From Escherichia coli (GTDB lineage Bacteria > Pseudomonadota > Gammaproteobacteria > Enterobacterales > Enterobacteriaceae), in NCBI RefSeq assembly GCF_044324875.1, contig NZ_CP172185.1: a stretch of 64,000 nucleotides of DNA, one strand, 5' to 3'. The position numbers and the translations under genes are program-made. Of this stretch, positions 60,852 to 61,823 are shown one piece after another; the stretch's first letter is position 1, and each line of letters opens with the position of its first letter. The notes under the pieces were generated by a model that saw nothing but the letters and a program-made list of their open reading frames with translations, was not told the origin of the DNA and did not search any database.

Positions 60852-61823
60852 TTAAGGCAGAATTGACGGCTGATCCGCCCCTTCTTTCTCCACTTTCTGT
60901 TGCAGCATATGCTCACGCTTCATACCCAATTTCAGGGCCAGCGCCGATGCCACATAGATGGAAGATGCAGTACCGATGGAAACACCAATCAGCATGGTCA
61001 GCGAGAAGCCTTCCAGTACCGGACCACCGAAGAGGTACAGCATCAGGATAACCATCAAGGTAGTACCGGATGTGATCAAGGTACGGTGCAGCGTCTGGGT
61101 CAAGGACACGTTAAAGATTTCGTAAGGCGTACCGCGACGGATCTTGCGGAAGTTTTCACGAATACGGTCCGATACCACGATACTGTCGTTAAGCGAGTAA
61201 CCGATAACCGACATCAACGATGCCACAATGGTCAGGTCAATCTCGATATGGAATAACGACAAAATACCCAGCGTAATGATAACGTCGTGCGCCAGCGCAA
61301 TAACAACCCCTGCCGCCAGTCGCCACTCAAAGCGGAAACCTACGTACACGAGGATAGACAGCAGCGCCGCCATCAACGCCATCGCACCGGTTTGCGCAAG
61401 GTCTGCCCCCACGCTCGGACCAACGAACTCAATACGCTTCACTGCCGCATTCTGATTGGTGGATTCGTTAATCACCTTCAGGACCTGGCTGCCCAGCACC
61501 TGACCGCCGGTTTCGCCTTCAGCAGGCGGCATACGGACCATGATGTCGTGGCTGCTACCAAAGTTTTGCAGCATCGGCTCTTCAAAACCGGCTTTTTGCA
61601 ATGCATCACGCATTACGTCAATTTCAGCCGGTTTTTCGAGCGTAATTTCAATAACCGTACCACCGGTGAAATCCAATCCCCAGTTAAAGCCACGCACGCC
61701 CATAATAACGATAGCGGCGATTAACAGCAGACCAGAGATGCCGAAAGCCCAGTAGTCCCAGCGCATAAAGTCATAGACTTTACGGCCGTGGTTTAGTTGT
61801 TCAACAGTATATTCCTGTGCCAC
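60852..61823 (-). CDS. secF: Protein translocase subunit SecF
   Basis: ORF 60852..61868 trimmed to GTG 61823, giving (M)[33 protein letters not shown]..., 323 aa. Confidence 0.93.

Follow-up and report, generated by a model that had tools for sequence, protein, structure and literature searches.

Initiation of secF at a GTG Codon and Over-Extension by Longest Open Reading Frames in a Segment of the Escherichia coli Chromosome

Introduction

That SecF of Escherichia coli starts at a GTG codon is already known from the K-12 record, UniProt P0AG93, PDB, reporter assays and N-terminomics. The curated K-12 secF gene (b0409, NP_414943.1) occupies positions 429505-430476 and comprises 972 nt, coding for 323 aa from GTG, with the end of secD at 429494. 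Kohl et al. (2022; Nucleic Acids Res 51:271, PMC9841429) included secF in their Table 2 of ‘atGTG-starting genes’, with AGGAG as the Shine–Dalgarno (SD) sequence and an aligned spacing of 13. In this AUGUG class, pqiA and tamA were ambiguous, whereas secF was unambiguous at GUG. The native ribosome-binding site of secF (20 nt) together with 15 nt of the coding sequence was fused to luciferase in either frame, and efficient secF initiation was detected only at the annotated GUG (Fig. 5B in PMC9841429). Experimentally determined N-termini are also provided by Table S1 of the TRAINSPOTTER study (Nucleic Acids Res 2026, PMC13245402), of which the available part is considered here.

The stretch of DNA analysed in this work, hereafter the window, comprises 64,000 nt of the E. 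coli contig NZ_CP172185.1 (assembly GCF_044324875.1). It represents a chromosome segment running from acrA to secD/yajC and is collinear with the reverse complement of the 426.5-488.5 kb region of K-12 MG1655, relative to which it carries three insertions (an IS21-family element, a pentapeptide-repeat segment and a parDE segment). A megablast search with positions 60700-63700 of the window gave matches in 5424 of 5426 complete E. coli genomes, and strains A10 and 042 were the closest ones (99.6-99.7%).

Results

The secD–secF Junction

The yajC, secD and secF genes are contiguous on the minus strand of the window, with secF located directly downstream of secD. The secD coding sequence (61834..63681, minus strand) encodes 615 aa from a GTG start, its maximal open reading frame (ORF) being the same as the curated one, and ends with the TGA stop codon at 61834..61836. 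The minus-strand sequence of the junction is AAG CTG TCA ATC TGA GGAGTGCGAT GTG GCA CAG GAA TAT ACT. An earlier note, made from the sequence of the window without database searches, had placed the initiation codon of secF at a GTG in 61821-61823; the plus strand carries CAC at these positions, which corresponds to GTG on the minus strand. The 10-bp spacer that had been given for the two genes was found as well, with GGAGTGCGAT extending from 61833 to 61824 between the secD TGA and the GTG, and the K-12 secD gene also ends 10 nt before secF. The SD sequence GAGGAG (61830..61835, minus strand) is located 6 nt before the GTG and shares the last two bases of the secD stop codon.

The secF coding sequence as corrected (60852..61823, minus strand) comprises 323 codons and a stop codon, and its product is 100% identical to K-12 SecF and to PDB 5mg3_F. 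The maximal secF ORF (60852..61868, minus strand) encodes 338 aa and starts at an upstream in-frame ATG (61868..61866), located inside secD within the TAT-GGC (Tyr-Gly) codons. The difference between 338 and 323 aa equals the 15 extra residues that the note had ascribed to the first ATG of the frame, and reading from 61823 yields MAQEYTVEQ, in agreement with the N-terminus that it had proposed. Another ATG (61823..61825, minus strand) overlaps the GTG out of frame and would encode a 10-aa peptide. The secF start site is accordingly of the AUGUG type, with a second canonical start codon at an offset of 2 nt; the window reads GCGATGTGGCA there and the context cgATGTGg is identical to that reported by Kohl et al. 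(PMC9841429). In comparison with K-12 secF, no difference was observed in the start site (the same 323-aa protein, GTG, 10-nt gap and SD), whereas further downstream the window strain has a parDE insertion not present in K-12.

Evidence for Initiation of secF at GTG

The assignment of the secF start to the GTG at 61823..61821, giving a protein of 323 aa with the 15-residue extension outside of it, is considered nearly certain and is based on sequence, annotation, N-terminal peptides and conservation. The energy of the SD duplex with the 3′ end of 16S rRNA was -11.0 kcal/mol at the GTG versus -1.2 kcal/mol for the 20 nt preceding the upstream ATG. At random positions of the window (n = 2000), the SD energy was -3.9 ± 2.6 kcal/mol and values of -9 kcal/mol or lower were obtained in only 4.2% of cases. 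Because -11.0 kcal/mol sits within this strongest 4.2%, the SD match of secF goes beyond chance.

The earlier note had named an alignment with curated proteins and N-terminal proteomics as the ways to check the start. In the alignment, the start of K-12 b0409 and that given by PGAP were both the GTG; in the PGAP annotation of strain A10, secF is identical, with 323 aa from the same codon. The E. coli SecF chain in PDB (5mg3_F) is likewise 323 aa long, and its alignment with the long ORF covers residues 17-338 of the latter. This chain was found in a phmmer search with E = 8.6e-209 and was identical over residues 2-323, which corresponds to homology along full-length SecF. The same search also matched the SecDF proteins of Thermus and Deinococcus.

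The proteomic check was conducted on published data and revealed two SecF peptides starting at the GTG. These are the b0409 peptides comprising residues 1-14 and 2-14, listed in rows 85-86 of TRAINSPOTTER Table S1 under the class of database-annotated starts at GTG 429505, with the entry ‘Ribo-RET (BL21), INRI’ in the Ribo-RET column (PMC13245402). The peptide 1-14, which retains Met, can come only from initiation at the GTG, since the codon would be translated as Val if it were internal. No row with an alternative or extended secF (b0409) start was present in the available part of Table S1, although a missing extended peptide is not a proof of absence, as Met removal and trypsin would leave AASASR, a short peptide that easily escapes detection. 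The experimental start data come from K-12 and BL21, strains other than that of the window, and SecF is 100% identical; the 60-nt start context given in Table S1 equals the window sequence over the 51 nt overlapping the junction read. The mature N-terminus (M)AQEYTVEQ was found in the annotation, in the PDB sequence, in the published peptides and in the conservation across 38 species, these data being from other strains. The luciferase reporter of Kohl et al. carried 20 nt of the upstream sequence, and the ATG at -45 thus lay outside its direct test (PMC9841429). Annotation, PDB, N-terminomics, reporter and cross-species comparison all agree with the view of the note that the 15-residue extension is not a part of SecF.

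Comparison of secD–secF Junctions across Species

Contigs representing one genome per species were searched with a degenerate DNA pattern of a SecF motif, which yielded 120 loci, among which 38 were Enterobacterales junctions. Per-site analyses were performed on 34 ungapped junctions, including that of the window. The start codon of secF was GTG in 37 of 38 other Enterobacterales species, with ATG in Edwardsiella ictaluri, and the spacer was 10 nt long in 33 of 38 junctions. The (G/A)AGGAG core of the SD was kept in all 34 ungapped junctions, and the SecF N-terminus MAQ(E/D)Y(T/S)VEQLN(H/Y)GRK was conserved in the Enterobacterales junctions. The first base of the GTG was invariant in the ungapped junctions, whereas the neighbouring spacer bases varied.

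Another possibility is dual initiation, in which the GTG would be the main start and a functional minor product would be made besides, either an extended form from ATG 61868 or the 10-aa out-of-frame peptide from the AUGUG motif. The short ORF of 10 aa is present in the window and some members of the AUGUG class, pqiA and tamA among them, are indeed ambiguous, but initiation at the secF AUG was ‘hardly detectable’ in luciferase reporters (PMC9841429). Nor is this AUG conserved: ATGTG was found in four of the 34 ungapped junctions (the window and three relatives) versus TTGTG in 28, and AAGTG also occurs. The N-terminomics table, in its available part, gives b0409 without an alternative start (PMC13245402). 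According to the published reporter data, initiation at secF is not ambiguous between the two frames (PMC9841429), and dual initiation with a functional minor product is regarded as highly improbable. A hidden small ORF of 10 aa translated from the AUG of AUGUG was considered as a candidate in its own right and was ruled out by the published reporter data and by non-conservation.

Only 14 of 38 relatives had the upstream in-frame ATG. Of the 34 ungapped junctions, that of the window among them, 16 had TAT-GGN as the Tyr-Gly codons of secD and 18 had TAC-GGN, and the ATG coincides with TAT-GGN but not with TAC-GGN, which makes it a by-product of the synonymous choice of the Tyr codon in secD. 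Over the 45 nt leading up to the secD stop, the entropy per site was 0.20, 0.04 and 0.85 at secD codon positions 1, 2 and 3, respectively (34 junctions). Variation is thus highest at what would be position 2 of the extension frame, a pattern incompatible with coding in that frame. The mean identity to E. coli was 0.61 for the extension, 0.86 for the first 15 residues of SecF and 0.90 for the last 15 residues of SecD. A SecF of 338 aa made from ATG 61868, with its first 35 nt overlapping the end of secD in another frame, can therefore hardly be entertained, and as the main product is effectively refuted: its frame is open and begins with ATG, and the ATG with an open 18-codon frame recurs in a number of close relatives (among them Citrobacter, E. 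albertii and Klebsiella sp.), but this ATG has no SD (-1.2 kcal/mol) and is missing in 24 of 38 Enterobacterales, six of the 38 species have a stop in the frame within 15 codons (1-9 codons from the GTG), the variation tracks the secD frame, the N-terminal peptides found in the available rows, one of them with Met retained, start at the GTG (PMC13245402), and the curated, PGAP and PDB proteins all have 323 aa.

The secD–secF junctions of other Gammaproteobacteria show the same gene order; the two genes are separated by approximately 9-15 nt or overlap as ATGA, and an SD directly precedes the secF start. In contrast to the Enterobacterales, characterized by GTG and the 10-nt spacer, secF of Vibrio, Shewanella, Aeromonas, Pseudomonas, Alteromonas and Haemophilus mostly starts with ATG. 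Many of these SecF N-termini are 6-7 residues shorter, whereas that of Haemophilus is longer. In Halieaceae, the secD stop and the secF start overlap as ATGA.

Starts of the Other Genes in the Window

The 55 curated K-12 proteins lying fully in the window were mapped onto its maximal ORFs. The longest ORF exceeded the curated start in 23 of 55 genes (about 40%). For the ten genes in which the earlier note had specified the over-extension, the mapping returned exactly the same numbers of residues: secF and lon +15, mdlB +38, tesB +28, yajR +66, yajG +53, yajQ +56, decR +76, ribH +32 and glnK +46. Its reference to further, unnamed genes was substantiated by 13 additional ones (tsx +16, yajI +20, yajL +2, cyoE +15, cyoD +27, bolA +11, ybaE +5, cof +4, ybaZ +7, pdeB +2, ylaC +13, hha +82 and acrA +12), with the reservation that for ybaZ/atl trimming to the curated K-12 start is probably insufficient. 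The 338-aa secF ORF is an artefact of the longest-ORF rule, and so are the longer ORFs of the 22 other genes. The gene lengths given by PGAP for the nearest strain agreed with the curated ones, except for ybaZ (103 aa) and hupB (96 aa in A10).

On the plus strand, the curated ATG starts define tesB at 11089..11949, yajG at 34739..35317 and yajR at 42240..43604, with the maximal ORFs longer by 28, 53 and 66 aa, respectively. On the minus strand, the curated coding sequence of lon spans 27664..30018 and the 15 additional residues come from a GTG at 30063, whereas yajQ (43732..44223) and ribH/ribE (55586..56056) are extended in the maximal ORF by 56 and 32 aa. The SD energies favoured the curated ATG in mdlB (13833..15614, minus strand; -11.8 versus -4.1 kcal/mol) and in glnK (13314..13652, minus strand; -15.0 versus -1.5 kcal/mol), in which the maximal ORF adds 38 and 46 aa. 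The opposite was observed for decR (17409..17867, minus strand; maximal ORF 17409-18095, +76 aa), where the SD favours the long form (-9.9 versus -6.0 kcal/mol).

In the 23 over-extended genes, SD energies averaged -7.5 kcal/mol for the curated starts and -3.8 kcal/mol for those of the maximal ORFs. The curated start had the stronger SD in 19 of them; the exceptions were yajI, ybaE and decR, with a tie for pdeB. As the SD of the long start is as strong or stronger in yajI (57792/57852), ybaE (18923/18938) and decR, the SD alone would mis-assign these three genes. No N-terminal peptides for decR, yajI or ybaE were found in the available part of TRAINSPOTTER Table S1 (PMC13245402).

The peptides in Table S1 (PMC13245402, available part) supported the trimmed starts of ribH, with a 14-residue N-terminal peptide, and of yajR, with the peptide MNDYKMTPGER. 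They also supported the untrimmed starts of yajD, nrdR, ribD (GTG), thiL, yajO, dxs, tig, hupB (GTG), fadM and maa. The same part of the table contained no peptides of lon, mdlB, tesB, yajQ or glnK, and its locus-tag-sorted part had no row for yajG or decR. The trimmed starts of lon, mdlB, tesB, yajQ, glnK, yajG and decR are accordingly supported by annotation and SD strength.

In pdeB (window 7628-7636, plus strand), curated annotation and PGAP both place the start at GTG 7634, only two codons after an in-frame ATG at 7628. Both codons share one SD region (-6.0 kcal/mol), and the choice between them is not obvious from the sequence. The N-terminomics table also lists, in its available rows, alternative starts inside tig (+50 codons), clpP (+18) and ribE/ribH (+2 and +3, at ATT) (PMC13245402); the respective genes are located in the window at 32475..33773, 31606..32229 and 55586..56056. 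These internal starts possibly represent N-terminal proteoforms, unrelated to the longest-ORF issue.

Three candidate starts were identified for ybaZ/atl (window 9859-10269, plus strand): TTG 9859 of the maximal ORF (136 aa), the curated K-12 ATG 9880 (129 aa) and ATG 9958 (103 aa). The PGAP annotation of strain A10 gives a ybaZ of 103 aa with the start at 9958. Row 105 of TRAINSPOTTER Table S1 (PMC13245402, available part) contains the ybaZ peptide MEKEDSFPQR with Ribo-RET support, which corresponds to ATG 9958, and the SD energy was -4.3 kcal/mol at this ATG versus -1.8 kcal/mol at ATG 9880. The curated K-12 protein of ybaZ/atl thus probably includes 26 aa too many at its N-terminus.

Segments Differing from K-12

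An IS21-family (ISSso4-like) element of about 2.65 kb, with istA and istB, was found between fadM and ybaV (approximately 21878-24533). Relative to K-12, a 4-bp overlap, probably a target duplication, accompanies this insertion. The same element is common elsewhere in E. coli. At the fadM–ybaV site, none was found among the matches listed from the search of 5,426 complete genomes, in which the coverage did not exceed that of the IS alone (87% of the query).

A segment of 1982 bp between yajO and pgpA (51621-53602), not present in K-12, carries a gene for a pentapeptide-repeat protein of 523 aa (ORF 51851..53422, plus strand). In strain A10, the gene is frameshifted and duplicated pgpA fragments are present at this location. 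Between yajD and secF, the minus strand encodes a toxin–antitoxin pair, ParE and ParD (ORFs 60185..60499 and 60459..60701), in a segment of 688 bp (60164-60851) that K-12 lacks. The maximal ORF of ParE is also over-extended, with 104 aa (GTG 60499) versus 93 aa in PGAP (GTG 60466). Conversely, the dxs–yajO intergenic region (window 50591-50646) is about 124 bp longer in K-12, and the extra K-12 sequence is probably a repetitive extragenic element.

Discussion

At the secF start, GAGGAG overlapping the secD stop sets the 30S subunit on the GTG 6 nt downstream. The GTG is read as fMet, giving the 323-aa SecF that begins with fMet-Ala-Gln-Glu-Tyr, and the initiator Met is then removed from part of the SecF population, as both peptide forms (1-14 and 2-14) were seen. 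The ATG 45 nt upstream is ignored, having no ribosome-binding site and lying within translated secD. Given the overlap of the SD with the secD stop and the gap of 10 nt, ribosomes ending secD probably help to load secF, and with such translational coupling the output of SecD and SecF would match. It is the geometry of the junction that suggests this coupling.

The minimum free energy of the junction RNA fold was -29.5 kcal/mol versus a mean of -33.2 kcal/mol for shuffled sequences (z = +1.19), and no unusual structure sequestering the SD was detected in it. An obligatory coupling that would unmask the SD was dropped from consideration because the junction RNA is no more stable than shuffled sequence.

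The invariance of the first base of the GTG, next to varying spacer bases, is compatible with selection on start-codon strength. The near-invariant GTG of the Enterobacterales, with its SD on the secD stop, may be a selected weaker start that sets the SecD:SecF ratio, or the AUGUG specific to E. coli/Citrobacter may give trace out-of-frame initiation with a regulatory effect; taken together, these ideas are judged unlikely.

For SecF itself, initiation at the GTG adds nothing new, and the value of the analysis is that of a quality control, in which manual trimming of the ORFs agreed with the curated and experimental starts. Maximal ORFs should not be taken for proteins, and the strength of the SD, used alone, finds the curated start in only 19 of the 23 over-extended genes of this E. 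coli segment.
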